Of a stretch of 64,000 nt of DNA, positions 3,132-64,000 are shown in pieces (the stretch's first letter is position 1; every line of letters begins with the position of its first letter). Below the pieces are notes generated by a model. The model was given only the letters and a program-made list of their open reading frames with translations. It was not told the origin of the DNA and did not search any database. The position numbers were made by a program, and so were the translations under genes. This stretch comes from an uncultured Nitrospira sp. (GTDB taxonomy: Bacteria; Nitrospirota; Nitrospiria; Nitrospirales; Nitrospiraceae): contig CABVRV010000003.1 of the NCBI GenBank assembly GCA_902500755.1, forward strand, positions 9,471-73,470. Reading direction: 5' to 3'.

Positions 3132-3190
3132 AGTTCCAGGTTTCAAGTTTTAAGGCCCCTGTCTCAACAGGTAACTTGGAACGTGAAACT
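3132..3190. terminator. Imperfect inverted repeat between convergent gspK and the REC-kinase gene (heptamer-built, possible bidirectional terminator)
   Basis: agttccaggtttcaagtt (3132-3149) pairs 15/18 with aacttggaacgtgaaact (3173-3190). Confidence 0.55.
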
Positions 3191-4089
3191 TAATCAAGCG
3201 GTACCATGATCGTCACTTCATTACCGCATTCATTGTAGGCTAAACTAGGAAAAAACGAACGAGTCAAAAAGATCCCTCTCCCATTCGCGCCTTCCGACTC
3301 ACATACTTCCTGCGAGCGCATGAGCAGACTCCGCCATTTGAAACCCTTGCCTTCATCGGTGATGCGATAAAGCAGACTGTTACCGCTCTTCTCGTAGAGC
3401 GCATGAATGGTCACGCGCCGATCTCTGAGCCGAGCTTGGGCCAAGCGTCGGGCGAGGAGCTGTTCATACTGTCCGTCCGCCAGAGCCTCTTGTTTCTCTT
3501 GGTAAAAGATTTCGAGATTCCCATGTTCGATGGCATTGAAGAGCAATTCTTGTAACGCTCCTTGAAGGTGCAACCGCCGCGTCGGCGGCAAAGCGGACGC
3601 CGTAGTCTTCATCAACCAGGAAATAATTCCTGAGATATGGGCAGGATCCGAGTCCACAGTCAGGCTATACTCTGATCGGCACACTCCCGGAAGATCAGCC
3701 AGATCTCCAGGCAGGAGTCCGCGCGCGCGCTGAATTGCGTGGGCCAATTCTTCTTCGGCGATAGGTTTATGAAGATAGTCGGCGGCTCCGACGCGCAGCG
3801 CCTCCAGGATCATCGGTTCCGGCGCGTCTTGGGCCATCACAATCACGGGGCAGGGATCATGTCTGGCTTTGAGCTTTTTCACCAATCTGAGTCCGGCTGC
3901 GTCGGGGAGAAATAAATCGGTGAGTACTATGTCCGGGGCCGTGGAATCGATGGTCGCCAATGCCGCTGCCGGATCATCCACGGCGACGACCGAAAACCCT
4001 CTGCCCCGCAAGTGCTGGGCGATGCACGCTTGGGTCTCTGGACACGAGTCGATGACCAACAGATGATCCGAGGTGTCCGGCATGTTCAT
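3190..4089 (-). CDS. Response regulator: REC + RsbW-like HATPase_c Ser kinase / anti-sigma domain
   Basis: REC with VLTDLFLPD and LHKPI; N-box ELLFNAIEHGN, G1 ITDEGKGF, G2 GRGIFL. Confidence 0.85.
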   Translation of the reverse strand: MNMPDTSDHLLVIDSCPETQACIAQHLRGRGFSVVAVDDPAAALATIDSTAPDIVLTDLFLPDAAGLRLVKKLKARHDPCPVIVMAQDAPEPMILEALRVGAADYLHKPIAEEELAHAIQRARGLLPGDLADLPGVCRSEYSLTVDSDPAHISGIISWLMKTTASALPPTRRLHLQGALQELLFNAIEHGNLEIFYQEKQEALADGQYEQLLARRLAQARLRDRRVTIHALYEKSGNSLLYRITDEGKGFKWRSLLMRSQEVCESEGANGRGIFLTRSFFPSLAYNECGNEVTIMVPLD

Positions 4090-4445
4090 GCGGCAAGTCC
4101 TTTGTCCCGTTCATGGCGAAGCGCATTCAGCAGACGCAAGAGTTCCTGTTCCAGCGTGACATAGAGCGCTTCAGCATGCTGAAGATTTCCGGCCTTTGCG
4201 GTTTCCTCTAATGTTTTGCATGCGTGAAGGGCAGCCGGAGCGCAAAACTGGAGGATCGCTCCCTTCAACCGATGACTGGATCGGGTCAAACCGGCGGCGT
4301 CTTGCGCGCCGAGTGTTGCTTTCGCTTCCGCTAAGTCCTTCGGCCCGTGTTCGATGAAGAGTTCCACCATCATGTCAAACGTCTCTCGGTCGTGATCGAC
4401 TCGGGAAAGCGCCTCATCAAGACTGAAGACGGAATCATGATTCAT
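4086..4445 (-). CDS. Stand-alone Hpt phosphotransfer protein
   Basis: SSHRLKGAILQFCA Hpt motif with conserved His; 119 aa helical protein. Confidence 0.9.
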   Translation of the reverse strand: MNHDSVFSLDEALSRVDHDRETFDMMVELFIEHGPKDLAEAKATLGAQDAAGLTRSSHRLKGAILQFCAPAALHACKTLEETAKAGNLQHAEALYVTLEQELLRLLNALRHERDKGLAA

Positions 4446-4457
4446 AAGATCCGCTCT

Positions 4458-5666
4458 CTACACGACTGCCGCCGTCACCTCGACACCCATCAGAGCCACA
4501 TCATCGGGAAATTGTTCGTGCCCCTGCCATCGGATCGCTTCCTCAATGGATCCCGCCACGACTTCCGTCAGAGGTCGGGGGCCGAAACCACGAATTGTCT
4601 CTTCCAGCCGATCTTGTCCCCACAATTCTCCGCTCGCATCCGGAACTTCATAAAGGCCGTCGCTCAACAGGTACAATCGATCACCCGGTGCGATCGTGAG
4701 ATCTGTCGTCACATACACCGTCGAGGCATCAAACCCGAGCGGTAAGTTAGGTCGAGTCATCCAACGGAATTCTCCAGACGCTCGTTGGAGAAACGCCCCA
4801 TTGTGACCGGCAGTGGCGTAGGAGAGGGTACGGGTACGCATGTCGAGTCTGGCAAAGATGATCGTAAAGTAGTTCCCGTCTTCCGTCAGCGGGAACTGTT
4901 TGTTGGCTTCCGTGAGAATGGAACCCGGATCAGTCGACCCGACATGCCGGAGCAAGTTGCCTCGTCGCAGAAATGTTGAAAGAGATGCGGAGCGCAATGC
5001 CGGCGAGACACCATGACCGGAAGCATCCAGCAAGTACAACCCCAACACACCATCGCCCCACGAAACGATGTTAAACAGGTCCCCGCCCAAGCCGAGCGAG
5101 GGTCGATAGGCATGCACCATCTGAACGCCGGGTAAGACGATGCCCGGCGCCGGGAGCAGCGATTCAACGTAGCGCGCCGCGGATTGCAGCTCTCGCTCGA
5201 GCACCTCCTGCTTGCGCCGAATCTCCCCGGTCGCGTCTTCTAATCGCCGGATCAGGGTCGCGGCGCGTATTCCGGACTGAACGCGAGCCGTGATTTCATA
5301 CTTGCTGGCGGCTTTGCTGAGAAAATCATCGGCCCCACGGGCCAATCCCTCGGCGATCTGCTCAGGTTGATCGTGGCTCGTCATCATGAGGATCTGACTG
5401 GTGAGCAGCTCAGGATCTTGGCGCACCCGTTCACAGAAGGACGGGCCGTCGATTTCAGGCATCATCCAATCTAAAATGGTCAGATCCGGTCGTTCACGAC
5501 GCAGCGCATCCAGTCCGGATTTGCCGTCGACCGCCTCGATCACGCGGTACCCCATCCGCTTGAGTCGAGCCGCCAGCGCAATGCGCGCGGTCGGCTCATC
5601 GTCCACGATGAGCACAGTTTGCCGCGCCACCTGAGCTGTTTGTTCAACCGACGTTGATGGCATCAC
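4458..5666 (-). CDS. REC + PP2C/SpoIIE Ser phosphatase (RsbU/RsbY-like)
   Basis: REC LIVDD..ILDWMMPEIDG..FLSK; PP2C LGGDLF, DASGHG, ATAGH, LSDG, DDVALM. Confidence 0.92.
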   Translation of the reverse strand: MMPSTSVEQTAQVARQTVLIVDDEPTARIALAARLKRMGYRVIEAVDGKSGLDALRRERPDLTILDWMMPEIDGPSFCERVRQDPELLTSQILMMTSHDQPEQIAEGLARGADDFLSKAASKYEITARVQSGIRAATLIRRLEDATGEIRRKQEVLERELQSAARYVESLLPAPGIVLPGVQMVHAYRPSLGLGGDLFNIVSWGDGVLGLYLLDASGHGVSPALRSASLSTFLRRGNLLRHVGSTDPGSILTEANKQFPLTEDGNYFTIIFARLDMRTRTLSYATAGHNGAFLQRASGEFRWMTRPNLPLGFDASTVYVTTDLTIAPGDRLYLLSDGLYEVPDASGELWGQDRLEETIRGFGPRPLTEVVAGSIEEAIRWQGHEQFPDDVALMGVEVTAAVV

Positions 5667-5694
5667 AAATCCCGCGTCAAAGTTACGTCATGTT

Positions 5695-5754
5695 TGTGAA
5701 GCGTCGTTCGTGAAGCGTGAAGTGTCTGAATCAAAAGACGAGATACGCTTCACG
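5695..5754. repeat. Intergenic heptamer repeat / hairpin element
   Basis: tgtgaag|cgtcgtt|cgtgaag|cgtgaag ... acgagat|acgcttc|acg. Confidence 0.65.
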
Positions 5755-5763
5755 CCGTCTGAC

Positions 5764-6114
5764 CTAGGCGGCTCGTTGTTGTGAGGCCAACGCATCTTGC
5801 TCGTTATCGTAGACGGGGATCAATTTCTGAATGTTTGCCAGGCTCATGATTTCCCGCACGTAGCTCTGCGGCTTCAACATACTCACTTTCCCTTGGCCCA
5901 ACTTAAAGTTTTGCGAGACCAGCGCAAGCAGTCCTAACCCGGAACTATCGACGAAGCGCACCTCGGACATATTCAAGATGAGATGCCGACAGCCCTTCTG
6001 CCGGATCGCTTCCACCGCCGTTTTGAATTGCTCACGATTGGCGTAGGTGAGATCTCCCGTCAACTCCAGAACCACACCGTTCGGCACTGGGCGTTCCTTC
6101 ACTTGCATGGCCAT
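5764..6114 (-). CDS. STAS anti-anti-sigma factor
   Basis: LELTGDL, LILNMSEVRFVDSSGLGLL (phospho-acceptor DSSG). Confidence 0.92.
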   Translation of the reverse strand: MAMQVKERPVPNGVVLELTGDLTYANREQFKTAVEAIRQKGCRHLILNMSEVRFVDSSGLGLLALVSQNFKLGQGKVSMLKPQSYVREIMSLANIQKLIPVYDNEQDALASQQRAA

Positions 6115-6162
6115 GACTTCCTCCTTCTTTCAATTCGGTCGAGACCGGTTCGTATCTTCCTC

Positions 6163-6501
6163 TCATGCGGCTCGAGCTTCAGCCGCCGCCTCCTCTGTTG
6201 GAAACACAGGAATCATCCTGTCTAGATTTGCCATCTCGAGAATCGTTTTCACCGTGCCTTGTGGCCCGACCAAGCTGAGCATTCTCTCGTCCGCCGTGAG
6301 CTGTTGGGACGTTAGTGCCAGCAAGCCGACAGCGGCACTATCGACATAGGTGGCATCGTGTAAATCGACGATGAGATGTTTACTTGGGGACTCCCTAAAT
6401 GTCTTCACCGCAGACGAGAAGTCTTTCCGGTTACGGTGCGTAAAGACATCGTCGATGTGCACCACGGTGGTCGTGTGTGAAGTGCGTTGAGTAATCGGCA
6501 T
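6163..6501 (-). CDS. Second STAS anti-anti-sigma factor
   Basis: LIVDLHDATYVDSAAVGLL..LEMANLDRMIPVFPTEEAA. Confidence 0.88.
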   Translation of the reverse strand: MPITQRTSHTTTVVHIDDVFTHRNRKDFSSAVKTFRESPSKHLIVDLHDATYVDSAAVGLLALTSQQLTADERMLSLVGPQGTVKTILEMANLDRMIPVFPTEEAAAEARAA

Positions 6502-6623: not shown

Positions 6624-7463
6624 TTAGGGCAACTTTGGGCGATCTATTCCAGACAACTCCGGTTGCAGCTGCGATGCGCCTGCTGGCATATCATCCGTTG
6701 ATTGCTCAGAGCCATCCGTCTCATGTTCTGCCCGGAGAAGTGAATCGGGTGGCGCTTGCTCAAGAATAATAACTTCAACTCGACGATTTTTGGCCCTTTG
6801 TTCAGAATCTAGATTGCCCGTCACTGGCCTCGTGTCGGCATGTCCTACCGCGGCAAGGTGGTCGGACGGCACACTGTAGAGTTCCGACAGCACTCTGACG
6901 ACCATCACAGCTCGAGCAGCCGATAAGTCCCAGTTGGAAGGAAATTGTGCCGTACGGATCGGAACATTATCCGTATGTCCCTCGACTTTGGTATGGCGGT
7001 TGAGCTCGACAAGCGCCCCGCTTAATCCCTCAAGAAATGGTAGTGCTTCCGCACGCACCGCAGCTTCTCCGCTGTTGAACAACAGCTGGTCTGGGATCGT
7101 GATGACGATGTCGCCGTTGACTTTTTCGGTGATTCGCACCGTCGACATCTGGGGGACCGCCTTGATGCTCTTCACCAAATTTCTCAGTTTTCTGATCACC
7201 ACCTCCTTACTCCCAGGCGTGTCCGGAGCCGTGAGTGCCGCTTTGTTGGCGCTCAACGAAAAGGGGGTAGGAGAGGACGGAGGACTTACGACTGGATTGA
7301 GCGCCGCCTTGATCGATTCACTGACGGTTCGGTACTTTCCGACGTTGACGGAGGAGATCGAGTACATCACGACGAAAAACGCAAAGAGTAAGGTAATGAA
7401 GTCGGCGTATGAGACCAGCCACCGCTCGTGGTTTTCGTGTTCCTCGTGCTTGTGCTTCGCCAT
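6624..7463 (-). CDS. motB: Flagellar stator protein MotB
   Basis: WLVSYADFITLLFAFFVVMYS; OmpA-like VEGHTD..SNWDLSAARA..NRRVEV. Confidence 0.96.
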   Translation of the reverse strand: MAKHKHEEHENHERWLVSYADFITLLFAFFVVMYSISSVNVGKYRTVSESIKAALNPVVSPPSSPTPFSLSANKAALTAPDTPGSKEVVIRKLRNLVKSIKAVPQMSTVRITEKVNGDIVITIPDQLLFNSGEAAVRAEALPFLEGLSGALVELNRHTKVEGHTDNVPIRTAQFPSNWDLSAARAVMVVRVLSELYSVPSDHLAAVGHADTRPVTGNLDSEQRAKNRRVEVIILEQAPPDSLLRAEHETDGSEQSTDDMPAGASQLQPELSGIDRPKLP

Positions 7464-7470
7464 TGATCAC

Positions 7471-7557
7471 CGTGACGCGTGAAACGTGCAACGTGAAGCG
7501 TTTGAGTCATCCCTCTTTAAGACCATCACGAGATACGAATGACGCTTCACGAACGAC
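7471..7557. repeat. Intergenic heptamer inverted-repeat element between motA and motB
   Basis: cgtgacg|cgtgaaa|cgtgcaa|cgtgaag|cgt ... acgagat|acgaatg|acgcttc|acgaacg|ac. Confidence 0.75.
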
Positions 7558-7558
7558 A

Positions 7559-8329
7559 TCATTTTTTTGTCTCCTTGGTCCGCTCGCTTTGGGGCAGAAC
7601 GCCCTCTAACTTTTCCTGAAGCAACCGAGGATTTTCACCTTGAGCAAGTCCTACGAGTCCCATAATGACCAGGTTGCGAGCACCCGCTTCTTCCTTCAGC
7701 TTCAGTTTGATCTTATTGGCAAGTGGAAGAAAAAACAGGTTCGCTGCGCCGACGCCGTAGACGGTGGCAACGAACGCCACCGCGATACCGCTGCCTAGTT
7801 TTGAGGGATCAGCTAGATTTTCCATCACGTGGATCAGCCCAAGCACCGCGCCGATGATGCCGACGGTCGGCGCATACCCACCGGCCGCTTCCCAGACCTT
7901 GGCTGCGATCACGCCCTGCTCCTCATGATGCTCCACCTCGATCTCAAGAATCTCGTGCACGGCTTTCGGTTCTGTTCCGTCGACGATGAGTTGAATCCCT
8001 TTTTTCATGAACGGATCCTTAATGTCCTTCAGCTTTCCTTCCAGCGCCAACAACCCTTGTTTCCGCGAGATCGTGGCGAGATCTAAGATGAGTTTAATCG
8101 TTCCTTTGTTGTCGATATGAGGGCCTGCGATCGCGATGGACAGCGCACCAAACGCCTTGATGACCACCGATAACGGATTTTGTATGCAAATCGCGCCGAA
8201 GGTGCCGCCGATCACGATGATGAAGGCGGTGAGCTGCATGATCGAGCCGACGTGCCCACCCTCCAGTACTTGGCCCCCGATAATGGAGCCCAACGCGATC
8301 GCTATTCCAAGGATTGTGGCAATATCCAT
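7559..8329 (-). CDS. motA: Flagellar stator protein MotA
   Basis: RKQGLLALE, GIQLIVDG, GGYAPTVGIIGAVLGLI, AFVATVYGV. Confidence 0.96.
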   Translation of the reverse strand: MDIATILGIAIALGSIIGGQVLEGGHVGSIMQLTAFIIVIGGTFGAICIQNPLSVVIKAFGALSIAIAGPHIDNKGTIKLILDLATISRKQGLLALEGKLKDIKDPFMKKGIQLIVDGTEPKAVHEILEIEVEHHEEQGVIAAKVWEAAGGYAPTVGIIGAVLGLIHVMENLADPSKLGSGIAVAFVATVYGVGAANLFFLPLANKIKLKLKEEAGARNLVIMGLVGLAQGENPRLLQEKLEGVLPQSERTKETKK

Positions 8330-8543: not shown

Positions 8544-8924
8544 TTACTTGAAAATCTTGCCGAGCTTCTCGTGCATGGTCTCTGCCGTAAAGGGCTTGAC
8601 AATGTAGTTACTCACCCCGGCTTGAACGGCCTCAACCAGATTGCTCTGTTGAGCTTCAGCCGTCACCATCAACACAGGAATAGCTTTGAGTTTCTCGTCC
8701 GCCCTAATTGCACGGAGCATATCGATGCCCGTCATGACCGGCATGTTCCAATCGGAGACGACGAATCCGTACGTATCGCCCCGTAGCTTTTGCAGGGCTT
8801 CCTGCCCGTTTTCGGCTTCGTCACAATTGGGAAATCCCAGCTGTTTCAGAATATTTTTTATGATCCTTCTCATCGTGACCATGTCATCGACGACGAGGAT
8901 TTTCATGTTGGGATCGGCTGGCAT
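8544..8924 (-). CDS. cheY: Chemotaxis response regulator CheY
   Basis: [29 protein letters not shown]; start moved to the ATG at 8924 behind GAGG. Confidence 0.93.
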
Positions 8925-9024
8925 GATGCCTCTTTTTTTCTGCTTCGACTGTCCCAACACGAGGACGCACTGCTAACAAAACCGTGGTGGTGGGCGTCTT
9001 CGTGACGCCCCTGCACTTCACTCC

Positions 9025-10560: not shown

Positions 10561-11184
10561 TTAGGAAAGCGGATTCGAAGCAGCCGCCTTGCGGCGAGAT
10601 CTCAACTGTTCAGCTTGTACCTGAAGAATATGGCGGATGAGGTGCTCCTGATCATCCGGCTTGAGATCGACGAACTCGGTGGCAATTGCATACCCTTGAC
10701 CACCAGCCTGCGGCATCGCTCGAATAACCCTGACGGTCGCCTTGATCAGGATGAATGGAGGAAGAATCAGCTTCAGCGCAAGCTGATCACCGGTGGATAA
10801 TTCCCGACCCGACAGGAAACTCACACCCCCGCCGCTCAAATTGACATCCATCGGTCGTGCCATAGTGACGCTGTCAGGTCGGCTGGCTGCCAAGGCATTC
10901 AGAATCACTTCAAGCAGATAATCCACCTTCATAATCCACGGTAGGACCGGGGACCCAACCAATGAATCGCCAGACCGGGCAAGAAGGTCCGCCGTCGGTT
11001 TACCCACAGCGGTAGAAATCATGTCGGCAGTTGGAGCACCTGCCTCGACAGCAAGTGTGTGGCCGGACTCCATCAACACTCGATACTCCATCAACACCCG
11101 GTCATCGACTCTGATCCATTCGCGCCGTTCGTCCTGGGTGGTCGTGGATGGAGCTTCCATTGGGGTCGTCATGTGCGACGTCAT
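10561..11184 (-). CDS. PilZ-domain c-di-GMP receptor
   Basis: RREWIR (RxxxR) and NLSGGG (D/NxSxxG). Confidence 0.88.
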   Translation of the reverse strand: MTSHMTTPMEAPSTTTQDERREWIRVDDRVLMEYRVLMESGHTLAVEAGAPTADMISTAVGKPTADLLARSGDSLVGSPVLPWIMKVDYLLEVILNALAASRPDSVTMARPMDVNLSGGGVSFLSGRELSTGDQLALKLILPPFILIKATVRVIRAMPQAGGQGYAIATEFVDLKPDDQEHLIRHILQVQAEQLRSRRKAAASNPLS

Positions 11185-27980: not shown

Positions 27981-29231
27981 ATGGCGACAAAGCGCATCGC
28001 AATCGAGCAGCTCATTCCCGGCATGTTCGTCGTGGAGATGGATGTTCCCTGGTACCGGACACCGTTTCTCTTCCATAAACGGTTGATCAACGATCTCCAG
28101 ACTATTGATCTCATGAAGCAACATGGGATTCGGATGGTGACGATCGACACCGGCAAAGGATCCGATCTCCCATCAGCGACGACTCAACCGTGTGTCAACG
28201 ACGACTCGGCCGCCCCGAACGTGGCCTTTCCGCAAGAGCCACACACTCAGCAGGCGATCGAACGCACACGTGCTGAGCAACCGGCTGTGGTCATCTATGC
28301 GCAGGCACAAGAAGCGGTTGAACGCATTTTCAATGACCTTGAGCGTGGAGTCCCTCCGACCCCCGAGGCGACGAAAGCCATCGTCTCAAATGTTCTGGAC
28401 CAAGTCCTTAATGACCGAGCTGCCATAGCGACTCAGGTTGCCATTCAGAAAATCAAACAGTTCGATCGGTCTCTGACAACCCACGCGTTGGATGCCTGCA
28501 TCTTATCTCTCATCGTCGCCGTTGAAAGTGACCTTGACCAACCGCTACAAGAATTGGTCGGAATGGGAGCCTTGCTCCACGACGCAGGCTATGTCCGTCT
28601 CCCACGCAATCTGGTTCGGAAGCGAGACGAATGCACCGGACAAGATAAAACATTGCTGGAACAGCATTGCAAGCTCGGCGTGACACTCCTTTCGGAACAA
28701 CCTGGTATGCACGAGGATGTCCTTCGAATCGTACGGGAGCATCATGAACGGTCGGACAAGAGCGGCTTTCCAGCCGGCCTTGGTCACGATCAGACCTCAC
28801 GTCTTGCTCAAATCGTCGGAATCGTCGATTTCTACGACGGCATGGTCAGTCGACGCGGGGCCCGACCAGCGATGATTCCCCACGATGCCGTTCGGCAACT
28901 CTTCCTCGCGGGAGAACGAGGGCAATTTGAAAAGACCTTAGTGGAGGTGATGATTCGGAGCATCGGCGTCTACCCGGTTGGAAGCCTGGTCAGGCTCAAC
29001 ACAGGCGAACAGGCAGTTGTCGTCGGAGCCAATCCACAGCAACGGCTCAAACCACTCGTCAAAGTCACGACCGATCCACAAGGTGGATCCTATGCGACAC
29101 CGATCGAAATCGACCTGGCTGCGCCGTCCTCAGACCACACTGTACGAAGCGTGCTGCGTGTGCTCGACCCGGTTCGTGAGCGCGTCAACATCGGCATACA
29201 TCTGGACACGACTTTGCCGCGAGCCGCATGA
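27981..29231 (+). CDS. HD-GYP c-di-GMP phosphodiesterase family protein (DUF3391-type N-terminus)
   Basis: IAIEQLIPGMFV; LLHDAG, HHERSDKSGFP, VDFYDGM. Confidence 0.88.
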   Translation: MATKRIAIEQLIPGMFVVEMDVPWYRTPFLFHKRLINDLQTIDLMKQHGIRMVTIDTGKGSDLPSATTQPCVNDDSAAPNVAFPQEPHTQQAIERTRAEQPAVVIYAQAQEAVERIFNDLERGVPPTPEATKAIVSNVLDQVLNDRAAIATQVAIQKIKQFDRSLTTHALDACILSLIVAVESDLDQPLQELVGMGALLHDAGYVRLPRNLVRKRDECTGQDKTLLEQHCKLGVTLLSEQPGMHEDVLRIVREHHERSDKSGFPAGLGHDQTSRLAQIVGIVDFYDGMVSRRGARPAMIPHDAVRQLFLAGERGQFEKTLVEVMIRSIGVYPVGSLVRLNTGEQAVVVGANPQQRLKPLVKVTTDPQGGSYATPIEIDLAAPSSDHTVRSVLRVLDPVRERVNIGIHLDTTLPRAA

Positions 29232-32119
29232 TGAAACCGCCTAAACGAAAACGGGGGCGATATCGACGCCGAAAGGCGACCTCTCAACCTGCGGCTTCCG
29301 TTGCGCGGGACCTCCTTGAAGGGCTTCCTGTTGCCGCTCTCGTTCTCAACCCCGATCTGACGGTCCAGGCTATCAACCGAGAGGGCATTCGGCTACTCGG
29401 ATCACGATGTCGATCCAGCCATGGATCATCGTTCCCGGTGCTATGGGCAAAACTTACCCGGTCTCGCGAATCACGCATTTCTGCACAGCTGAATAGCACA
29501 TTTAAAACCAATCGTCCGGTCTCAACGACTCAACAGCTCTTCGCAGGAAGCAAGACGACGAACACTCCTGTCGAGTGGACGTGCCTCCCGAGCGAGCTCA
29601 ATGGTACGAGAGTTCTGGTCATCAGCATTCGAGACCTCTCCCATGAAATGGAGTTGGAGCAAGACCGTGATCGCTTGGCAGCAATCGCCGAAGAAAGCCC
29701 TTCACCCCTTATCGAACTGGATCGGGATTCCAGTCTGTTGTATGCCAATCCTGCCATGATTTCGCTACTCTCTCGATTTGGGTACAGCCTCGACGGATTC
29801 CCAAACGTGGCGCCACGCCGACTTCCGAACATTGTCGAGCACTGCCTCAACACCGGTCAGACACTCCATCACGAAGAAGTCCTCCTACCGGAAGCCAGTT
29901 TTTCTTGGACCTTTTGTCCAGTGCCTCATCATGGAGTGGTTCGCGGCTATGCGACCGACATGACAAACGTTCACAAGACGCAGCAGGCGCTCCGGTTATC
30001 AGCCGACCAACTTCAGCAGAGCAATCAACGACTGGACAAGGCGCTTGATGAAGCGAAAGAGTCTGCGCGCGTCAAAACGGCGTTCCTTGCCACAGTCAGC
30101 CACGAGTTGCGAACGCCCATGAACGGCGTGATCGGCATGACAAGTCTCCTGATGGAGACATCTTTGACGTCTGAGCAGCAGTCGTACACCGAAACCATAC
30201 GCCAGTGCGGAGAGGCGCTGCTGCAACTGATCAATGATGTGCTCGAATGCAGCAAGATTGAGGCGGGAAAACTGGAGCTGGAGTGCCTCGATTTCAATCT
30301 GCGAACCACGGTAGAGCAGGTCCTCGCGCAGTTTGCCGAACGCGCTGAGACGAAAGGTCTTGAGTTGACCGGGCTGGTCCATGCAGCGGTGCCGACTGGA
30401 CTCAACGGCGACCCTGGACGATTGCGCCAGATCCTGACCAATCTTGTGGCGAACGCCGTAAAATTTACCGACAAAGGAGAAGTGACACTGCAGGCCTATC
30501 TTGAAGAAGACCTATCGGATTCCGCGGTCATTCGGTTCGAGGTCACCGACAGCGGCATCGGCATCAGTCCGAATACTCAGGCCAGGCTCTTTCGTCCATT
30601 CATGCAGGCTGACAGTTCAACGACGAGAAAATACGGCGGCACCGGCCTTGGCCTGTCCATTTCGAAACAACTCGTGGAGTTGATGGGAGGAAGTATCGGC
30701 GTACGGAGCTCCGAAGGACAAGGGAGTACCTTCTGGTGCACGGCGCGCCTTCTCAAACAAGCCGGCTCGCCGCGTGCCATTCTTCCGATGGGAGATCTCG
30801 CAGGGAAACATGTCTTGATCGTCGATGACAACGAATCGAATCGTCTGATTCTCCATCATTTGGTATCCGGCTGGGGAATGGTTGACGATCTGGCAGAGGA
30901 CGCCGAATCCGCTTTGCACCGGATATCTGAGGCGACACGACGAGGAACTCCGTACGATCTTGCGATCTTGGATGTCATCATGCCGGGAAAGGACGGGCTT
31001 CAGCTCGCCCGAGAACTTCAGCATCATCCAGAGGGATCTGGGATTCGCCTTGTCGTGATGACCTCGATGCTTCAACGAGGCCACGCGGAGCAGGCGCGTC
31101 AAGCCGGCGCCATGGGTTATCTACCGAAACCTGTGCGCCACGACGAATTGCGAGACTGTTTGCGAACCGTTCTCGGTCTGGCTGAGAGTCCAAGGCCAAA
31201 GGAACCTCAAACACTCTCGGTCGTTCCTCAACTGGTCACCAGGCATACGGTCGCCGAGAACGTCCAACACCGACGCGTCCTCGTGGTGGAAGACAATCTG
31301 GTCAACCAAAAGCTTGCCGTCCGCATGGTCGAGAAACTGGGTTATCAGCCTGATGTTGTCGACAATGGCCAAGAAGCCTTGACAGCACTGAAGAAGTGCG
31401 ACTATGCCGCTATTTTAATGGATTGTCAGATGCCCATCATGGATGGCTTTGAGACAACCAAGAATATTCGCGAGCGTGAAGCAATGGCTACATCTGGTGG
31501 ACCACCGGCTCAGGCAGATCCTCAATTAAGCATAGGCTCGTCTTCCCTACCGCATATGCCGATCATTGCGGTGACCGCCAATGCCATGCAAGGAGATCGA
31601 GAACGTTGTTTGGCGGCTGGGATGGATGATTATCTTTCGAAGCCGATCAAACTGGATGAACTCCGCGCTGCCCTTGCACGTTGGATCACCTCACCGTCTA
31701 CCAACGCCGTGTCTGAACAACAGCAGCCTGTGTACACCACGACCGCCCCTACTCGAGGGATCTTTGACCCCGCCAGGATGTACCAGAATATCGGCAGCGA
31801 CAACGAATTATTCGCGCAACTCATCTGTCTGTTCCTCGATCGTCACCAGACCATGTTGGCTGAGATCAGAACGGCGCTCGCCGATGGTGATTCGTCCGCG
31901 GTGGAGCGGACTGCTCACACCTTCAAGGGAACGGCGGGAAATCTTTGCGCTTCTGAAGTAGGACTCACCGCTAGTCGTCTGGAAGCTGTCGGTCGTCTCA
32001 GTGCGCTTCACGATGCCCCTCCCGTCTATGCGCAACTCGAGCTTGAGGTCGCACGACTCGTTCGCGTGTTGGAATCCTACCGGCAGGGGTATCAGCCCAT
32101 CACTGAGGCAGCCGCCTAG
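29228..32119 (+). CDS. Soluble hybrid histidine kinase (PAS-PAS-HisKA-HATPase-REC-REC-Hpt)
   Basis: SHELRTPMNG, NLVANAVKFT, DSGIGI, GGTGLGL; two RECs; AHTFKGTAGNL Hpt; no obvious TM segment. Confidence 0.93.
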   Translation: MMKPPKRKRGRYRRRKATSQPAASVARDLLEGLPVAALVLNPDLTVQAINREGIRLLGSRCRSSHGSSFPVLWAKLTRSRESRISAQLNSTFKTNRPVSTTQQLFAGSKTTNTPVEWTCLPSELNGTRVLVISIRDLSHEMELEQDRDRLAAIAEESPSPLIELDRDSSLLYANPAMISLLSRFGYSLDGFPNVAPRRLPNIVEHCLNTGQTLHHEEVLLPEASFSWTFCPVPHHGVVRGYATDMTNVHKTQQALRLSADQLQQSNQRLDKALDEAKESARVKTAFLATVSHELRTPMNGVIGMTSLLMETSLTSEQQSYTETIRQCGEALLQLINDVLECSKIEAGKLELECLDFNLRTTVEQVLAQFAERAETKGLELTGLVHAAVPTGLNGDPGRLRQILTNLVANAVKFTDKGEVTLQAYLEEDLSDSAVIRFEVTDSGIGISPNTQARLFRPFMQADSSTTRKYGGTGLGLSISKQLVELMGGSIGVRSSEGQGSTFWCTARLLKQAGSPRAILPMGDLAGKHVLIVDDNESNRLILHHLVSGWGMVDDLAEDAESALHRISEATRRGTPYDLAILDVIMPGKDGLQLARELQHHPEGSGIRLVVMTSMLQRGHAEQARQAGAMGYLPKPVRHDELRDCLRTVLGLAESPRPKEPQTLSVVPQLVTRHTVAENVQHRRVLVVEDNLVNQKLAVRMVEKLGYQPDVVDNGQEALTALKKCDYAAILMDCQMPIMDGFETTKNIREREAMATSGGPPAQADPQLSIGSSSLPHMPIIAVTANAMQGDRERCLAAGMDDYLSKPIKLDELRAALARWITSPSTNAVSEQQQPVYTTTAPTRGIFDPARMYQNIGSDNELFAQLICLFLDRHQTMLAEIRTALADGDSSAVERTAHTFKGTAGNLCASEVGLTASRLEAVGRLSALHDAPPVYAQLELEVARLVRVLESYRQGYQPITEAAA

Positions 32120-42857: not shown

Positions 42858-42873
42858 AGCAACCCTTATGCCA
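42858..42873 (-). promoter_or_regulatory. sigma54 promoter for flgF-flgG-flgA-flgH-flgI-flgJ
   Basis: Minus strand TGGCAT-AAGGG-TTGCT. Confidence 0.8.
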
Positions 42874-51728: not shown

Positions 51729-52097
51729 TTAACGAAGCTGCTGCACGCGCTCCGCGGCACTCACCACATCTGTCAGTCGAATGCCGAATTTTTCATTCAC
51801 GACCACGACTTCACCACGGGCAACGAGTTTGTTATTCACCATCACTTCCATCGGTTCACCCGCCAATTTATCCAGTTCGATGACGGAGCCTTGGGCGAGT
51901 TGCAACAGATCGCGGATCGCCATCTTGGTAGACCCGACGTACACGGCTACGCTCATGGGAATATCGAGAAGGAAATCCATATTCTTCGGGGTTCCTCCTG
52001 TTTCCGTCCCTTGAACGGACGGAAACGAGGCAGGCTTAGGAACACCCTTCCCTTCCGCTTGAAGATCCGTGCGCATCGCAGATTCTGATTCAGCCAT
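51729..52097 (-). CDS. fliN: C-ring protein FliN
   Basis: LLDIPMSV, GSVIELDKLAGEP, ARGEVVVVNEKFGIR. Confidence 0.96.
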   Translation of the reverse strand: MAESESAMRTDLQAEGKGVPKPASFPSVQGTETGGTPKNMDFLLDIPMSVAVYVGSTKMAIRDLLQLAQGSVIELDKLAGEPMEVMVNNKLVARGEVVVVNEKFGIRLTDVVSAAERVQQLR

Positions 52098-53700: not shown

Positions 53701-53716
53701 TGCAATGCATATGCCA
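53701..53716 (-). promoter_or_regulatory. sigma54 promoter for the fliL-fliM-fliN-fliOPQR-flhBAFG-fliA operon
   Basis: Minus strand TGGCAT-ATGCA-TTGCA. Confidence 0.85.
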
Positions 53717-57970: not shown

Positions 57971-58579
57971 TTACGGCATCCATCGGCCGCTCAGGCTCAA
58001 AAGGCTAGCTGCAATGCTGACGATATGCCCTTGCTCGTCCAAAATCGGGATCAGCCAACCGGTTAGCGTGCCTTGGCCTTTGGCGCCGTTGAGAAAATTC
58101 ATCCGACCATTCAGCAGAAGCCCTGGAACAAAGTTCCCGCCTGGAGTGGCAAGACAGGTCGCACCATCTGGGGTCTCACATTCGACAGGAGTCGGACCGG
58201 TGCTTGACGCCATTGTGACATTCGCTTCATAGACGCCGGCAATCAAGCGAGCATGGATGCGGCCAGACTGAGTCGCGATAGGCACATTAGAATCGTACAT
58301 GATGACAAACGGCACACCTGCCGTTCCTCCAATTGATCCGGTGAGTGTGCCGGTAATCTGACGATCTCTCACGATGAATCGCCCGCTTTGACCGGCCGGA
58401 CGGACATCGCCGGTATCAATCGTCAAGATGGTACCACTCGCACTAAACGGTACGTGCGGCCCGGCGAATGCCGGCAGAGAAACACCCGCTAACCCAACGA
58501 TAATGGCGCAGACCCGAAGTACGCCACCACATAGAAATGTTCGCTCCGAACTGCAATGCGGCGTAATACCTTTATACAT
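57971..58579 (-). CDS. Hypothetical exported beta-rich protein
   Basis: 202 aa; Sec-type signal ending LPAFA|G; G/T-rich beta-strand pattern; two close Cys. Confidence 0.65.
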   Translation of the reverse strand: MYKGITPHCSSERTFLCGGVLRVCAIIVGLAGVSLPAFAGPHVPFSASGTILTIDTGDVRPAGQSGRFIVRDRQITGTLTGSIGGTAGVPFVIMYDSNVPIATQSGRIHARLIAGVYEANVTMASSTGPTPVECETPDGATCLATPGGNFVPGLLLNGRMNFLNGAKGQGTLTGWLIPILDEQGHIVSIAASLLSLSGRWMP

Positions 58580-58831: not shown

Positions 58832-59593
58832 CTACGGCATCTGTGCCAACAACTGCTCGGTGAGTTTAGCGGCCCGATCCGCTTTGACCTGGGAAAGAAT
58901 CGCTCCGGCGGTCTTTGATTTTACCAGGCGGAGGATTTCAAGCGCCCTTCGATCCGGCATACGTTCCAGACGCGCAGCCGCGTCTTCCGATGGCATAGAC
59001 TCGTACATCTTCGCAAGCCGTGTCCGTTCCTCTTGTGCCAGACGTTCCTTCTCTACATTGACTTTGGCCTGGGATCGGTCTTCTTTGGCCTGGGCGCTTT
59101 GAATCTTCTTCTCCAAGGCTTCGTTTTGTTCTAACAATTCCTCGATCTGGATTCTCACGATCATGAGCCGTTGCTCGTTGTGACGGATCGCCTCTTCCCG
59201 CTGATCCAGATCACGCTTACGCTGCTCCAGCATTTCCAGTACTTCGCGCGGAACATCGATCGCGGGTCCCTGACTTGCCGGAGGGGCCAGCAACTTGGCG
59301 TCATCCCGCACCTCCGATTCGTTCTTCTCTCCCGGCGGAACAGGAGGGACCGCATCCAGGTTCGAAGATGTCTGGGACATCGATGAAACCTTGGATTTAG
59401 GTTCGGACGAGGCTTGCCCCAATTGCACCATGGCCCACAACAGAATAGTCGAACCAAAGACTCCCCCAATCAGTGTCCAGAGAGAAGCGTGTCGATTCGA
59501 TCTCGACGTCGAGTCCTGAGTTCTCTGACTGACAACACGGAATCGCTCTTTTATCGGATTGGTGGGAGATGAATTCATACACCCCGCTCTCAT
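58832..59593 (-). CDS. MotE/FlbB(YlxF)-like flagellar protein (TM, coiled coil, MgtE_N)
   Basis: LAKMYESMPSEDAAARL..AGAILSQV; directly after fliJ. Confidence 0.8.
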   Translation of the reverse strand: MRAGCMNSSPTNPIKERFRVVSQRTQDSTSRSNRHASLWTLIGGVFGSTILLWAMVQLGQASSEPKSKVSSMSQTSSNLDAVPPVPPGEKNESEVRDDAKLLAPPASQGPAIDVPREVLEMLEQRKRDLDQREEAIRHNEQRLMIVRIQIEELLEQNEALEKKIQSAQAKEDRSQAKVNVEKERLAQEERTRLAKMYESMPSEDAAARLERMPDRRALEILRLVKSKTAGAILSQVKADRAAKLTEQLLAQMP

Positions 59594-60015
59594 TGCAACA
59601 AATAACGACGGCTCGCGGCCTCATCCGTCGCTCGCTGTTCCTGACGGGCCAAATCGGCACATTGTGTGGCCTTGCGTCGATCGAGAATACGATCGAGCAA
59701 CTTGCACTCCTGATTCGCTTCGACAAGGAGATTGTTGGTGCGCTGCCATGACACGGTGGTCTGCTCAATCACGAGATACGCCTGGCGCAAAGCCGCCTGC
59801 TGCGAATGCATACGCGCCTGCCACTCCAACATGGCCTCTATGGTCATGCCTTGCTTCGCTTGTTGACTATATGTATCGGCATCTTCCAACATTTCGATTT
59901 CCATCCCGCGATATCGTTCTTCGCTGCGAGAAAGGGATCGGGCGATCTGGCCCAATTCCATCATGAGAGCCTCCACCGCCTGCCCGCGCAGCTTCCGCAA
60001 CGAGTCAAGGCTCAT
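59590..60015 (-). CDS. fliJ: FliJ
   Basis: Helical coiled coil after fliI; LVEANQECKLLDRIL, EQRATDE. Confidence 0.8.
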   Translation of the reverse strand: MSLDSLRKLRGQAVEALMMELGQIARSLSRSEERYRGMEIEMLEDADTYSQQAKQGMTIEAMLEWQARMHSQQAALRQAYLVIEQTTVSWQRTNNLLVEANQECKLLDRILDRRKATQCADLARQEQRATDEAASRRYLLQ

Positions 60016-61319
60016 GTGGCTTTCTTGGCCAGCATCTCAAGCTGCTGTGCAGATGAGGCGAAGCTGGCCGCTTGATCAATGTCTTGGCGCAAATACCCGT
60101 TGATCGCGTCCTGAGCGTCAACGGCGCGGTCAAGGACAGCATTCATCCCTGGTTTGTAGGCGCCAAGTAGAACCAAGTCCTCAGATTGTCGGTATCGAGC
60201 GACCAATTCCAGAAGCCGCCTGGCCGCATCGTAGTGTGAACGGTCGACGATATCCCGCATGACACGGCTGGTGCTTTGGAGCAGATCAATCGCGGGAAAA
60301 TGATTGCGTGCCGCCAGTGTCCGAGAGAGGACGATATGGCCATCTAAGATCGACCGGACCGTATCGGCAATTGGATCGTTCAGATCATCTCCATCGACAA
60401 GCACGGTGTACAGTCCAGTTATGGTCCCGGGGCCGGGACCCGTCCCCACACGTTCCAACAGCTTCGGCAAGAATGCGAATACCGAGGGGGTATAGCCTTT
60501 CGTCGTCGGAGGTTCTCCGATCGCGAGCCCAACTTCTCGCTGACTGTAGGCTAATCGCGTCAATGAGTCCATGAGCAACAAGACGTGCTTTCCTGCATCA
60601 CGAAAATACTCGGCAATGGTCGTCGCCACCAGTGCAGCCCGGAGCCGGACGAGCGGAGCCTGGTCGGAAGTCGCCACGACTACGACGGAGCGCGAGAGCG
60701 CCTCAGGATCGAGATCGCGCTCTAAAAATTCGTTGACCTCTCGACCTCGCTCTCCGATCAACGCAATGACATTCACATCCGCTTGTGTGTAGCGGCTGAT
60801 CATCCCCAGCAACACGCTCTTGCCGACACCCGAACCGGAGAAAATCCCCATCTTTTGACCACGACCACACGTAAGAAAGCCGTTGATCGCACGCACGCCG
60901 AGATCAAGCGGAGCTTGGACCCGGGATCGTTGCAACGGGTTCGGAGCCTCGGCGTGAAGCGGGTACCTGACAATCGTCGCTGGCATGCCCTTGCCATCGA
61001 GCGGATTCCCGCATCCATCGAGAACACGCCCCAGCAAGCCTGGCCCGACAGCCAGGTCGGCGACATGGCCCGTCATGGTAATTCGACTCCCTGGCCCAAT
61101 ACCCTGCATTTCTCCCAAGGGCATCAACAGCACGCGATCCCCACGGAACCCCACGACTTCCGCAGTAATCGGTCCATCACCGACCTCCCGGGTAATCCGG
61201 CACAGCTCGCCAACCGTCGTCATGGGCCCGTACCCTTCCACGACCATTCCCACCGCTTGCGCCACTCTTCCCGACACTTCGATCGGGTCGATGTGTTCAA
61301 GGAGCCGACTAAGACTCAC
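60012..61319 (-). CDS. fliI: Export ATPase FliI
   Basis: GIFSGSGVGKS, LIGERGRE, LLLMDSLTR, GEPPTTKGY. Confidence 0.97.
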   Translation of the reverse strand: MSLSRLLEHIDPIEVSGRVAQAVGMVVEGYGPMTTVGELCRITREVGDGPITAEVVGFRGDRVLLMPLGEMQGIGPGSRITMTGHVADLAVGPGLLGRVLDGCGNPLDGKGMPATIVRYPLHAEAPNPLQRSRVQAPLDLGVRAINGFLTCGRGQKMGIFSGSGVGKSVLLGMISRYTQADVNVIALIGERGREVNEFLERDLDPEALSRSVVVVATSDQAPLVRLRAALVATTIAEYFRDAGKHVLLLMDSLTRLAYSQREVGLAIGEPPTTKGYTPSVFAFLPKLLERVGTGPGPGTITGLYTVLVDGDDLNDPIADTVRSILDGHIVLSRTLAARNHFPAIDLLQSTSRVMRDIVDRSHYDAARRLLELVARYRQSEDLVLLGAYKPGMNAVLDRAVDAQDAINGYLRQDIDQAASFASSAQQLEMLAKKAT

Positions 61320-62334
61320 GATGGCTCCTGTTCCTCAAGGCATCGCCCAACCGGAGTAACTGCGTATCAAGGGACGCATCCACCATTCTGGTGCCGGTAT
61401 GCACAAGACAACTTCCACGTGGGAGCGAGGCCACCGGTTCGATGGTGAGCATCAGTGCGGGATCCCGTTGCCTTTCCAGTTCTGCTCGAACCGCCTCAAG
61501 GACGGCTGCATCCAGCGGATGCGCCTGTATCATTAACGCACCCGGCTCTCGAACAGCACCTAATGCGTCCTTCACCTGTATGACAATGTGTTCCCGATTC
61601 GACTCGGCCGACTCGTGAAGAATTTTCGAGACGATCTGAAGCGACAAGGCAATCACCTCGTCCTCGACTGTCCGCTGCAATTTTGATCGAGCCGCATCGA
61701 ATTTCCGAGCCGCATCGATCAACACGACCAGATCATGCCGACGCTCTTCTTCCATCCGCCGTTGTCCATCCGCGACGCCACGCTCGTATTCCGACGAGCC
61801 GTCGTCCTGCGCCGCCGCACCGTCTTCCCCAAACGTCTGAAATGGAGAAGTGTGCAGCCGTACCATACCGGACCGAACTGCCGCATGCTTTAAGACGGTA
61901 TTTTCGGCGCGCAACTGATGGAGTTCCAACAATCGCCGCACGGTGTTCAGCACGATTTCTGACTGGAAGGGCTTGACCAAAAAGTCAATGGCCCCGGCCT
62001 TCATCGCGCGGACTGCGAGTTCAACCGTTCCTGCTCCTGTCATCACCACACCGATGATCCGACTATCAATCTTCTGGGCTTCCTCAAGAACCGTAATCCC
62101 ATCTTGATCTGGCAGCAACACATCGGCAATCAAGAGAGCTGGAGCTTGCTGCTTGACCATCGCAATCGCTTCTTGCCCGGAACTGGCGACTCGAACGGAT
62201 ACTGGTTCCGGTCGGAACAGTTCAAGAAATAGGTTGCGAATCCCCTCTTCATCATCGACGATGAGGATCGTCCCCTGCGGTCGAGCGAGTTCATGTTCCC
62301 GAAACGTCTCCGCTGATATCGCCGAACCCTTCAC
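61309..62334 (-). CDS. fliH: FliH with N-terminal response-regulator receiver domain (REC-FliH fusion)
   Basis: Between fliG and fliI; REC ILIVDD..LIADVLLPDQDG..MTG..LVKPF; FliH YERGVADG, IQAHPLD, LPRGSCLVHTGTRMVDASLDTQL. Confidence 0.88.
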   Translation of the reverse strand: MKGSAISAETFREHELARPQGTILIVDDEEGIRNLFLELFRPEPVSVRVASSGQEAIAMVKQQAPALLIADVLLPDQDGITVLEEAQKIDSRIIGVVMTGAGTVELAVRAMKAGAIDFLVKPFQSEIVLNTVRRLLELHQLRAENTVLKHAAVRSGMVRLHTSPFQTFGEDGAAAQDDGSSEYERGVADGQRRMEEERRHDLVVLIDAARKFDAARSKLQRTVEDEVIALSLQIVSKILHESAESNREHIVIQVKDALGAVREPGALMIQAHPLDAAVLEAVRAELERQRDPALMLTIEPVASLPRGSCLVHTGTRMVDASLDTQLLRLGDALRNRSHRES

Positions 62335-63326
62335 TACAACATCTCCTCTCCGACGCCGGCGATCACGATACGGCCTTCCTCTTCGAGTTTTCGGCAGACT
62401 TTGAGGATATTCTGTTGAGCTCGTTCGACATCCGAAATCTTGACCGGCCCCCGTGTCTCCATATCATCTTTCAACATTTCGGCGGCACGGCTGGACATAT
62501 TTTTGAAGAATTTCTCTTTCACGTCGGGATTGGCGCCGCGCAGCGCAACCGGAAGGTCGTCTTTGCTGATCTCTTTCATCAACTCTTGCATCCCTCGATC
62601 ATCGACTTTCACGATGTCGTCAAACACAAACATGAGCGCTCGAATATTATCGGCGAGGGTTTGGCTTTTTTCTGAAATTCTGGTCATGATCCCGCCTTCA
62701 TTCGTCTTATCCATCCGCATCAAAATATTGGCGATGACCTCGGCCCCTCCGACGCTATGAGCTCCCATTTCTTTGCTTTCCAAGATGGCTTCTTGCAACG
62801 TTTCACTCAGTTCCTCCAGGACGTCCGGCTGCACTTCCTCCATCGTGGCAAGTCGAAGCGCCACATCTCCTCGCATCTCCTCCGGCAGAGCACACAGCAC
62901 TTGCCCGGCTTGGTCGCTCTCCAAATGGGCGAGAACCACCGCGACCGTTTGTGCATGTTCGACCTTCAACATTTGAGTCAGGGTTTTCACGTCCACCCAT
63001 TTCAACGCTTCCAGACCCGGATAGCTTTTCTGCGTCATCGATTCGATGACCCGCGCCGCCTTGTCCGGTCCCAGTGCTTTGGTCAGCACCGTCTTGATGA
63101 ATTCTTTTCCATGAAACTGAACTCCCCCCGTCGCACTCGCCGTTTGAAAATCTGAAATGACCGCCTCTTCCTCGTCTCGTGAAATCTGCGCCGTTCCGCT
63201 CATGAAGCTCCCCAATTTCTTGATTTCCTTCGGGTCAAGTTGTTTCATAACTTGGGCGGCGGCCTCTTCACCGATGGCGCGAAGGAGAATGGCCGCTTTC
63301 TGTTCGCCCGTCAAATTCTTTGCCAT
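62334..63326 (-). CDS. fliG: Rotor protein FliG
   Basis: QKAAILL, MFVFDDI, KNMSSRAA, GPVKISDVERAQ; start inferred at ATG 63326. Confidence 0.97.
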   Translation of the reverse strand: MAKNLTGEQKAAILLRAIGEEAAAQVMKQLDPKEIKKLGSFMSGTAQISRDEEEAVISDFQTASATGGVQFHGKEFIKTVLTKALGPDKAARVIESMTQKSYPGLEALKWVDVKTLTQMLKVEHAQTVAVVLAHLESDQAGQVLCALPEEMRGDVALRLATMEEVQPDVLEELSETLQEAILESKEMGAHSVGGAEVIANILMRMDKTNEGGIMTRISEKSQTLADNIRALMFVFDDIVKVDDRGMQELMKEISKDDLPVALRGANPDVKEKFFKNMSSRAAEMLKDDMETRGPVKISDVERAQQNILKVCRKLEEEGRIVIAGVGEEML

Positions 63327-63333
63327 CTCTGCG

Positions 63334-64000
63334 TTAGGTTGGATTCTTGAGCCACTGTTTGACGACAACGGCGGTCGTATCAGGATTCTTTCTGGCCATG
63401 TCGATGATCTGTGCCCGATCCGGAGCGTGTGTTAATGACCCCTCGGTCATCCCAGCCCGACCAGGGAGTGCGGAGACCGACGCTTCGGCCTGCATTTGCT
63501 CGGTCGTCGATCCCAACATCGCCAGCAGCGGACGGACGACAAACAGGAGGATCACCGTGAACAGAAGGATTCCTACACCATAACGAAGATAGGGCAACCA
63601 TGCTTTGGGACCTTCCGCTGTCGCTTCTGCCACAATACCTTGCGGTTCATCGGGTCCCGCCCCAAATTGAACATTGACCACTTGTACCTGATCCTGCCGC
63701 TCAGCTGAATAGCCCATTGCTTTTTTGACGATGTCCTCGATTCGTTTTAAGTCCTCTTCCGAACGCGGAATATATTTTCGCGCCGCGGCTGGTGCGTCTG
63801 TTGCCTCCCCTTCACCGGTTTTACTAGGTTCATACATGCCGTCGACGAGGACGGCCACGGAAAGTTGCTTGATCACACCGACAGGCTCCACAATTTTTGA
63901 GACGGTTCGACTGATCTCGTAGTTCACGGTCTCGTTTTTCGTTTGGCTGTTGTTTGAACTCGTTTGCGCAGGCTCCTGGTCTGTCCCTGGCGGCACGTTC
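63334..64000 (-). CDS. fliF: MS-ring FliF, C-terminal part (5' end beyond the window)
   Basis: ETVNYEISRTV, LSVAVLVDG, AMGYSAERQDQVQVVN, TM helix, VVKQWL. Confidence 0.93.
   Translation of the reverse strand, partial: NVPPGTDQEPAQTSSNNSQTKNETVNYEISRTVSKIVEPVGVIKQLSVAVLVDGMYEPSKTGEGEATDAPAAARKYIPRSEEDLKRIEDIVKKAMGYSAERQDQVQVVNVQFGAGPDEPQGIVAEATAEGPKAWLPYLRYGVGILLFTVILLFVVRPLLAMLGSTTEQMQAEASVSALPGRAGMTEGSLTHAPDRAQIIDMARKNPDTTAVVVKQWLKNPT

Follow-up and report, generated by a model that had tools for sequence, protein, structure and literature searches.

Flagellar assembly is regulated via transcription hierarchies, secreted anti-sigma factors, chaperones and cyclic di-GMP (c-di-GMP), which binds FliI-type ATPases. 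FliH, the adaptor of the export ATPase FliI, is a dimer, and the receiver (REC) domains of NtrC1 and DctD signal by re-arranging a receiver–linker dimer. In Salmonella, the extreme N-terminus of FliH (W7 and W10) binds FliN and FlhA, residues 1-140 make up a long coiled coil, the FliI N-terminus is the partner of residues 141-235, and FliH anchors the ATPase ring in the manner of a peripheral stalk (PMC9114704). The Salmonella FliH2-FliI complex is reported to be non-essential for export (PMC5789064). In the Campylobacter FlgSR checkpoint, the export apparatus signals to a kinase and the output is transcription (PMC3760246). Here, we describe REC-FliH, a 341-aa protein in which a receiver domain stands in front of FliH. 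Its gene lies at 61309..62334 on the minus strand of a 64,000-nucleotide stretch, referred to below as the window, from an uncultured Nitrospira sp. (assembly GCA_902500755.1, contig CABVRV010000003.1, positions 9,471 to 73,470).

The gene is a single uninterrupted open reading frame of 341 codons that fills the interval between fliG and fliI. Its GTG start shares 1 nt with the TAG stop of fliG (TAGTG), and its own stop falls 11 nt within the GTG-started fliI. The upstream neighbour (62334..63368, minus) carries the FliG_N, FliG_M and FliG_C domains of the rotor/switch protein, and the downstream one (60012..61319, minus) the ATP-synt_ab and T3SS_ATPase_C domains of the export ATPase. Pfam recognises two domains: Response_reg (PF00072) spans residues 23-131, with E 6.5e-23 and 81.5 bits where the cut-off is 30.2, and FliH (PF02108) spans residues 207-328, with E 4.6e-15 and 56.1 bits (cut-off 24.1). 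Such E-values lie far outside what chance would give. The initial annotation, made from the sequence alone, had read this gene as a complete receiver followed by an NtrC-like signalling helix and a FliH body; profile searches and structure prediction recovered both domains and both folds. The protein is a response regulator with FliH as its output domain. The annotation had also pointed out that a separate canonical fliH might do the work, and a six-frame PF02108 search of the whole genome returned no second FliH, the single match being REC-FliH.

The receiver occupies residues 22-131 (61942..62271, minus), as delimited by Pfam, the AlphaFold2 (AF2) fold, Foldseek, residue conservation and substitution rates. 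All the phospho-site residues named in the initial annotation are present, namely the acidic pair D27-D28 (IVDDEE), the acceptor D71 (LLIADVLLPD), T99 (VVMTG) and K121 (LVKPF). The model shows a (beta-alpha)5 receiver at residues 22-124, with the last helix running on to residue 144 and a per-residue confidence (pLDDT) of about 90 across residues 22-144. With Foldseek, it superposes on the solved receivers of NtrX, Spo0F and NtrC1 at target-normalised template modelling (TM) scores of 0.85-0.92, the range for isolated solved receivers being 0.85-0.94. The best NCBIfam matches are NtrX, FixJ and AtoC, the NtrX and AtoC alignments reaching residues 152-154, and among PDB profiles the NtrC1 and DctD receivers (1ZY2, 1NY5 and 1QKK) score best, aligned through the linker helix to residues 151-155. 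Helix alpha5 and the NtrC1/DctD-type linker helix together span residues 125-150 (SEIVLNTVRRLLELHQLRAENTVLKH; 61885..61962, minus); AF2 predicts a helix at residues 125-144, and the linker-helix sequence LLELHQLRAENTVLK corresponds to residues 135-149. The NtrC-type assignment of the initial annotation, signalling helix included, thus stands, and the receiver is intact and of the NtrC1/DctD type.

REC-FliH resembles the NtrC1, DctD and NtrX receivers (1NY5, 1ZY2, 1QKK, 1L5Y and 4D6X), its best matches in sequence and fold, in having the complete Asp pocket, the Thr and the Lys. Unlike the corresponding activators, it has FliH in place of the AAA+ and helix-turn-helix (HTH) domains: Pfam gives REC and FliH only, and both the AAA+ sigma-54 interaction domain (GAFTGA) and HTH_8 are absent. 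Because these domains are missing, REC-FliH is not a member of the sigma-54 activator family, and activation of transcription by it is impossible.

The FliH part bears the motifs YERGVADG (183-190), HPLD (272-275) and GSCLV..VDASLDTQL (307-326). It matches the NCBIfam FliH model PRK05687 at E 5.8e-15 (55.5 bits, under the equivalog cut-off of 180); pairwise BLASTP of REC-FliH against E. coli FliH is not significant (E 0.73), and the relationship rests on profiles and fold. The whole-protein AF2 model, computed from an alignment of 31 family sequences (mean pLDDT 78; predicted TM score, pTM, 0.41), has a disordered N-terminal tail (residues 1-17/21) and a low-confidence stretch at residues 146-179. 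Since Foldseek searches with this model returned receivers only, the FliH part (residues 182-341) was modelled apart (pLDDT 87). Its best matches were then 5B0O_F and 5B0O_E from the Salmonella FliH–FliI complex (E 6.5e-6, target-normalised TM 0.69), followed by the E peripheral-stalk subunits of V-ATPases, and its sequence profile matches 5B0O_E at E 2.2e-9. A long helix at residues 182-245 (61600..61791, minus; helix 2-64 of the separate model) forms the FliH stalk or coiled coil in the AF2 model and by Foldseek, beginning at the GxxxG-type segment YERGVADG. It is followed by a globular alpha/beta domain at residues 246-334 (61333..61599, minus; 248-334 in the whole-protein model), the expected FliI-binding head.

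Between the linker helix and the stalk lies a segment, residues 146-172 (TVLKHAAVRSGxVRLxSxPFQTFGxDG; 61819..61899, minus), that is a candidate FliN/FlhA docking region. Its pLDDT is below 50, yet it is among the most conserved parts of the protein, with K149 kept in 214/218, G156 in 206/218 and F168 in 208/218 sequences. Conservation combined with predicted disorder is as expected for a partner-binding linear motif, and PFQTFGEDG (164-172) resembles PWKTWTPDD at residues 6-14 of E. coli FliH. FliN (122 aa), with which the N-terminal segment of FliH is expected to dock, is encoded at 51729..52097 on the minus strand, the gene being named from its place after fliM and from a typical FliN C-terminal sequence. 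The protein is a complete FliH, with candidate docking segment, stalk helix and FliI-binding head, that carries a receiver and linker helix at its front. Like the canonical FliH/SctL proteins of Salmonella and E. coli, it occupies the fliG-fliH-fliI slot as the sole copy, matches PF02108, and has a GxxxG-type segment, a stalk helix and a 5B0O-like head, with an aromatic pair motif ahead of the stalk. Unlike them, it has about 145 extra N-terminal residues, so that the candidate docking segment is internal.

The fusion is present in more than 200 distinct sequences, and the full-length protein in at least 120 protein clusters (61-100% identity) among the matches listed. About 12 full-length clusters were found at the 50% level among 1.84 billion representatives, all of them single-stretch relatives of REC-FliH. 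No independent fusion of a receiver to FliH was seen above the multi-REC proteins that crowd that list, where very different FliH partners could escape. The 80 named genome loci that carry the fusion all belong to Nitrospira, Nitrospiraceae or unclassified Nitrospirota. REC-FliH itself clusters at ≥90% with a protein of Ca. Nitrospira kreftii, and the complete genome of Nitrospira moscoviensis NSP M-1 has the fusion between fliG and fliI. Two very divergent members come from short metagenomic contigs: in one, a gene for a FliI-type ATPase follows immediately, and in the other the only neighbour is an unannotated upstream gene, the contig stopping before any fliI. In a sample of 201 genomes across the phylum, a survey of the kind proposed in the initial annotation, full-length matches occurred solely in the family Nitrospiraceae (f1), in its genera g1, g2, g4 and g5. 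Outside this family, FliH genes are open frames of about 170-300 aa (217-227 aa in the sister family of the same order), in agreement with the statement that canonical FliH has no receiver.

Residue conservation was counted over 218 distinct sequences, down to about 35% identity. The acceptor Asp71 is kept in 214/218, Lys121 in 216/218 and Thr/Ser99 in 211/218; position 27 holds Asp in 207 sequences and Glu in 9, and position 29 is Asp or Glu in 217/218. The pairwise ratio of non-synonymous to synonymous substitution (dN/dS) is 0.136 for the receiver, 0.16 for the stalk and 0.162 for the head. The receiver thus evolves under the same purifying selection as FliH, with its phospho-site maintained. 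These data leave almost no room for an assembly or annotation artefact or a decaying pseudogene, a reading that is effectively refuted: the frame is uninterrupted in closed chromosomes, including that of N. moscoviensis, and in many independent assemblies, selection on it is purifying, and the overlap of its start with the fliG stop is of the kind seen in operons with translational coupling.

The source of the receiver can be traced to the same flagellar cluster. The window ends inside fliF, and the rest of the contig carries the head of the cluster on the same strand (L014:2845-9365; G000:C3:75844-82364), with act505, a gene for a 744-aa tetratricopeptide repeat (TPR) protein, the soluble 433-aa PAS histidine kinase HK433 (L014:4250-5551) and a second activator of 470 aa, for which FlbD is the second-best match; flgB, flgC, fliE and fliF come after the 470-aa activator, also on the same strand. 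The product of act505 (G000:C3:80850-82370) is a 505-aa NtrC-family sigma-54 activator with an intact receiver and a REC-AAA+-HTH architecture that includes GAFTGA. It is comparable to FlrA/FleQ in position and to FlgR/FlbD in type. The gene lies about 10 kb upstream of fliH and is kept there in the relatives whose coordinates were listed. The layout of the cluster head is two-tiered like FlrA/FlrBC, but its first-tier regulator is predicted from the intact receiver to be phosphorylatable.

Among all receivers of this genome, that of act505 is the closest to the FliH receiver, with 45% identity and 117 bits against at most 84 bits for any other, in an alignment that includes the linker helix to about residue 151. 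In a maximum-likelihood tree of 54 receivers, those of REC-FliH form one clade (97/89) joined to the act505 clade (91/95), and all other receivers of the genome fall outside this grouping. Sequence and tree identify the FliH receiver and linker helix as paralogous to the receiver of act505, and these clades show a single copying event from this flagellar activator, at about the base of the Nitrospiraceae.

Close relatives include natural variants of the fusion. A genome of the same genus, G092, encodes a 215-aa FliH without the receiver (L015:7155-7802, G092:C3, minus), which starts a few residues ahead of the conserved ILKHAAV... segment and so retains the candidate docking segment. A tree of FliH bodies places it within the REC-FliH clade of its genus (95/94), so the loss is secondary and in frame; the fliF-fliG-fliH-fliI-fliJ-fliK cluster of G092 appears intact. 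The FliH of G065 (genus g3) also has no receiver and branches at the unresolved base of the family, so this state could be ancestral or a loss. In genus g4, the REC-FliH of G136 (L023:938-1990, G136:C1) has a degenerate phospho-site, and its receiver stands on a long branch of 1.08 substitutions per site, confined to this single lineage. Taken together, the lost and decayed cases show that the receiver is accessory, i.e. regulatory, rather than structurally required.

Considering these features, we propose that the receiver controls the docking of FliH2-FliI at the basal body rather than the chemistry of the ATPase, a reading to which we would give close to an even chance. Since FliH is dimeric and receivers of this class work by re-arranging dimers, a phosphorylation-driven change in the receiver pair would be the simplest mechanism. 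Phosphorylation of Asp71 would re-arrange the two receivers at the end of the FliH2 stalk nearest the C-ring and FlhA, and the re-arranged receivers would expose or occlude the adjacent candidate docking segment (146-172) with its PFQTF motif. The change in docking would tune the recruitment and anchoring of FliH2-FliI at FliN and FlhA and, as an outcome, alter the rate of flagellar protein export and assembly, with ATPase catalysis itself not targeted. The initial annotation had proposed the export ATPase as the target; on the predicted geometry this appears less likely, as the receiver is located at the N-terminal end of FliH, close to FliN and FlhA, and a helix of about 64 residues separates it from the FliI-binding head, which makes control of docking or anchoring likelier.

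Several observations weigh against the docking proposal. The AF2 model gives no fixed contact between the receiver and FliH (pTM 0.41), and the likeness of the candidate docking motif to that of E. coli is post hoc and at motif level. If, as reported for Salmonella, the FliH2-FliI complex is non-essential for export, such control would modulate export rather than gate it. The in-frame deletion in G092, in an apparently intact cluster, indicates that the receiver is dispensable for core FliH function, and G136 keeps the domain with the replacements D71G, T99V and K121V. Asp28 is found in 164/218 sequences, and about a quarter (52/218) have Ala (37), His (13), Gln (1) or Gly (1) there. A survey of the kinases and Hpt (histidine phosphotransfer) protein in the window and of the cluster head found no cognate kinase for REC-FliH.

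Two phosphodonors had been suggested in the initial annotation, and neither gained support. One is a soluble hybrid kinase with the architecture PAS-HisKA-HATPase-3xREC-Hpt (29228..32119, plus), which has no segment resembling a transmembrane helix. Full-length orthologues occur only in genera g1, g2 and g5, among them that of G092 with its receiver-less FliH; they are absent from g4, which carries REC-FliH, and from the sister family. The kinase is therefore not co-distributed with the fusion, which leaves it without support as an obligate partner and counts further against the docking proposal. This kinase is encoded midway through the flagellar cluster, on the strand opposite to it, and is preceded by an HD-GYP-like protein (DUF3391 + HD_5; both within 27981-32119, plus). 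The other suggested donor, an Hpt protein (4086-4445, minus), sits in a separate partner-switching module with receivers of its own (3190-6501, minus). This module comprises, besides the Hpt, a REC protein with an RsbW-like HATPase_c_2 domain (3190-4089), a REC protein with a SpoIIE/PP2C phosphatase domain (4458-5666) and two STAS proteins (5764-6114 and 6163-6501), all on the minus strand, and adjoins motA/motB (6624-8329) and a CheY-like gene (8544-8960).

The comparison with other signalling inputs to the flagellum shows what is particular to REC-FliH. As in FlgSR and in the binding of c-di-GMP to FliI, signalling is linked to the flagellar type III export apparatus; unlike in FlgSR, a two-component receiver is built into the adaptor of the ATPase, and unlike c-di-GMP, a ligand that binds the ATPase, the receiver is carried on the adaptor. 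As proposed here, it would act like CheY on FliM/FliN, that is, as a phospho-receiver working on the flagellar machine by protein contact and not through DNA. CheY is a free single-domain protein that controls rotation, unlike the FliH receiver, which is a covalent component of the export apparatus and comes from a different receiver class. A database record for Ca. N. nitrificans (CUS31637.1) already names a 'putative flagellar biosynthesis protein FliH with response regulator receiver domain (modular protein)', and other records label the protein 'response regulator' or 'FliH'. In a full-text literature search, we found no paper describing or testing the fusion and no published example of an export apparatus that incorporates a two-component receiver. 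New here are the paralogy of the receiver with that of act505, the lineages of secondary loss and decay, and the place of the receiver beside a candidate docking segment. The architecture suggests a kinase signal acting directly on the machine that builds the flagellum, which would add FliH to the known output domains of response regulators. It also offers a compact system for asking how the FliH N-terminus engages FliN and FlhA, in which close relatives supply natural controls in the form of the REC-less and the decayed-REC proteins. Nitrospira includes globally important nitrite oxidisers and comammox bacteria, and the switch between motile and attached states matters for biofilm-based water treatment.

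The relationship to act505 raises another explanation, which we consider somewhat unlikely, namely cross-talk between the two proteins. The FliH receiver would compete with act505 for a phosphodonor, as a sink or decoy, or would form heterodimers with the receiver–linker of act505, and free or docked FliH2-FliI would thereby report the state of assembly to sigma-54 transcription, as a checkpoint reminiscent of FliX-FlbD or FlgM. The act505 receiver is indeed the nearest paralogue of the FliH receiver and linker helix, receivers of the NtrC1/DctD type dimerise via alpha4-beta5-alpha5 and the linker, and no kinase gene adjoins act505 in this genome. The operon that contains fliH is, moreover, preceded by a sigma-54-like box upstream of flgB. 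The alpha1 helix, a usual region of kinase specificity, argues the other way, as it differs at most positions between the two receivers when compared by eye. The activator also persists on its own: act505 is retained in G092, where the FliH receiver is gone, and its orthologue in G136 (L131) keeps an intact receiver where that of FliH has decayed, which indicates that the activator does not depend on the FliH receiver and sets the two proteins apart, act505 being a full activator. Dependence of act505 and REC-FliH on one shared kinase was considered and rejected, as the act505 receiver might then have decayed too in G136, where it is intact.

A stronger version of the same idea is quite unlikely in our estimation: the pool of undocked FliH2-FliI would set act505 activity, through receiver pairing or donor drain, in a new kind of assembly-to-transcription checkpoint. 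If true, the checkpoint would owe its origin to a duplication of the input domain of the regulator itself, the copy having been attached to a structural component of the export machine.

With regard to the kinases of the cluster head, HK433 adjoins the 470-aa activator and is presumably paired with it. The act505 orthologue of g4 genomes is immediately preceded by a gene for a PAS-HisKA-HATPase-REC hybrid (L131:3269-4912, L132:3597-5192), which is a candidate cognate kinase for act505; the closest relatives of this hybrid in the genome studied here have 46-52% identity and lie on other contigs (C44 and C100). The box upstream of flgB (L014:2696-2711, minus) is of the sigma-54 type and is suggestive, in that it would place fliH in a sigma-54-dependent operon. 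Only box positions count here, as the upstream locus has no more such boxes than chance would give (9 observed against 6.25 expected). Two further boxes of this type (GGCAT-N6-TTGC) occur in the window at 42858-42873 and 53701-53716 (minus), just upstream of genes starting at 42824 and 53660.

An unlikely explanation of another kind is that the receiver works independently of phosphorylation, as an added module for dimerisation or spacing or by giving FliH a further, constitutive contact with the C-ring or FlhA, the Asp pocket being a structural relic. Structural roles of pseudo-receivers are well known, the fusion has no linked kinase, and G136 keeps the domain despite the replacement of D71, T99 and K121. 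This decayed case is one long branch, as loss of constraint would look, and D71, T/S99 and K121 are kept in 97-99% of the 218 sequences, with a receiver dN/dS of 0.14; both points speak against this explanation.

We think it highly improbable that the receiver docks in the manner of CheY, the phosphorylated domain binding the FliM N-terminus or a hydrophobic patch of FliN and so providing a second, signal-dependent anchor on the C-ring. The attraction of this idea is that a CheY-fold domain is tethered beside the FliN-binding end of FliH, and phosphorylated CheY acts on FliM/FliN. The receiver is of the NtrC1/DctD class and not of the CheY class, no feature of its sequence indicates FliM binding, and a separate CheY is encoded at 8544-8960.

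On the strand of REC-FliH, the order of the flagellar genes is fliF, fliG, REC-FliH, fliI, fliJ (59590..60015, minus; PF02050, E 6.4e-11), a gene with an MgtE_N domain and fliK, as identified with Pfam, and fliM and fliN lie further down the same cluster. An open reading frame of 202 aa with a hydrophobic N-terminal segment is located between fliK and the MgtE_N-domain gene (57971-58579, minus). At the other end of the cluster, upstream of act505 and near the end of the contig, a STAS-domain gene and a phage-type integrase fragment were found (L014:9717-11284). Finally, the flagellar and chemotaxis cluster includes a gene for a 207-aa PilZ-domain protein (10561-11184, minus), which may be a YcgR-like c-di-GMP brake.

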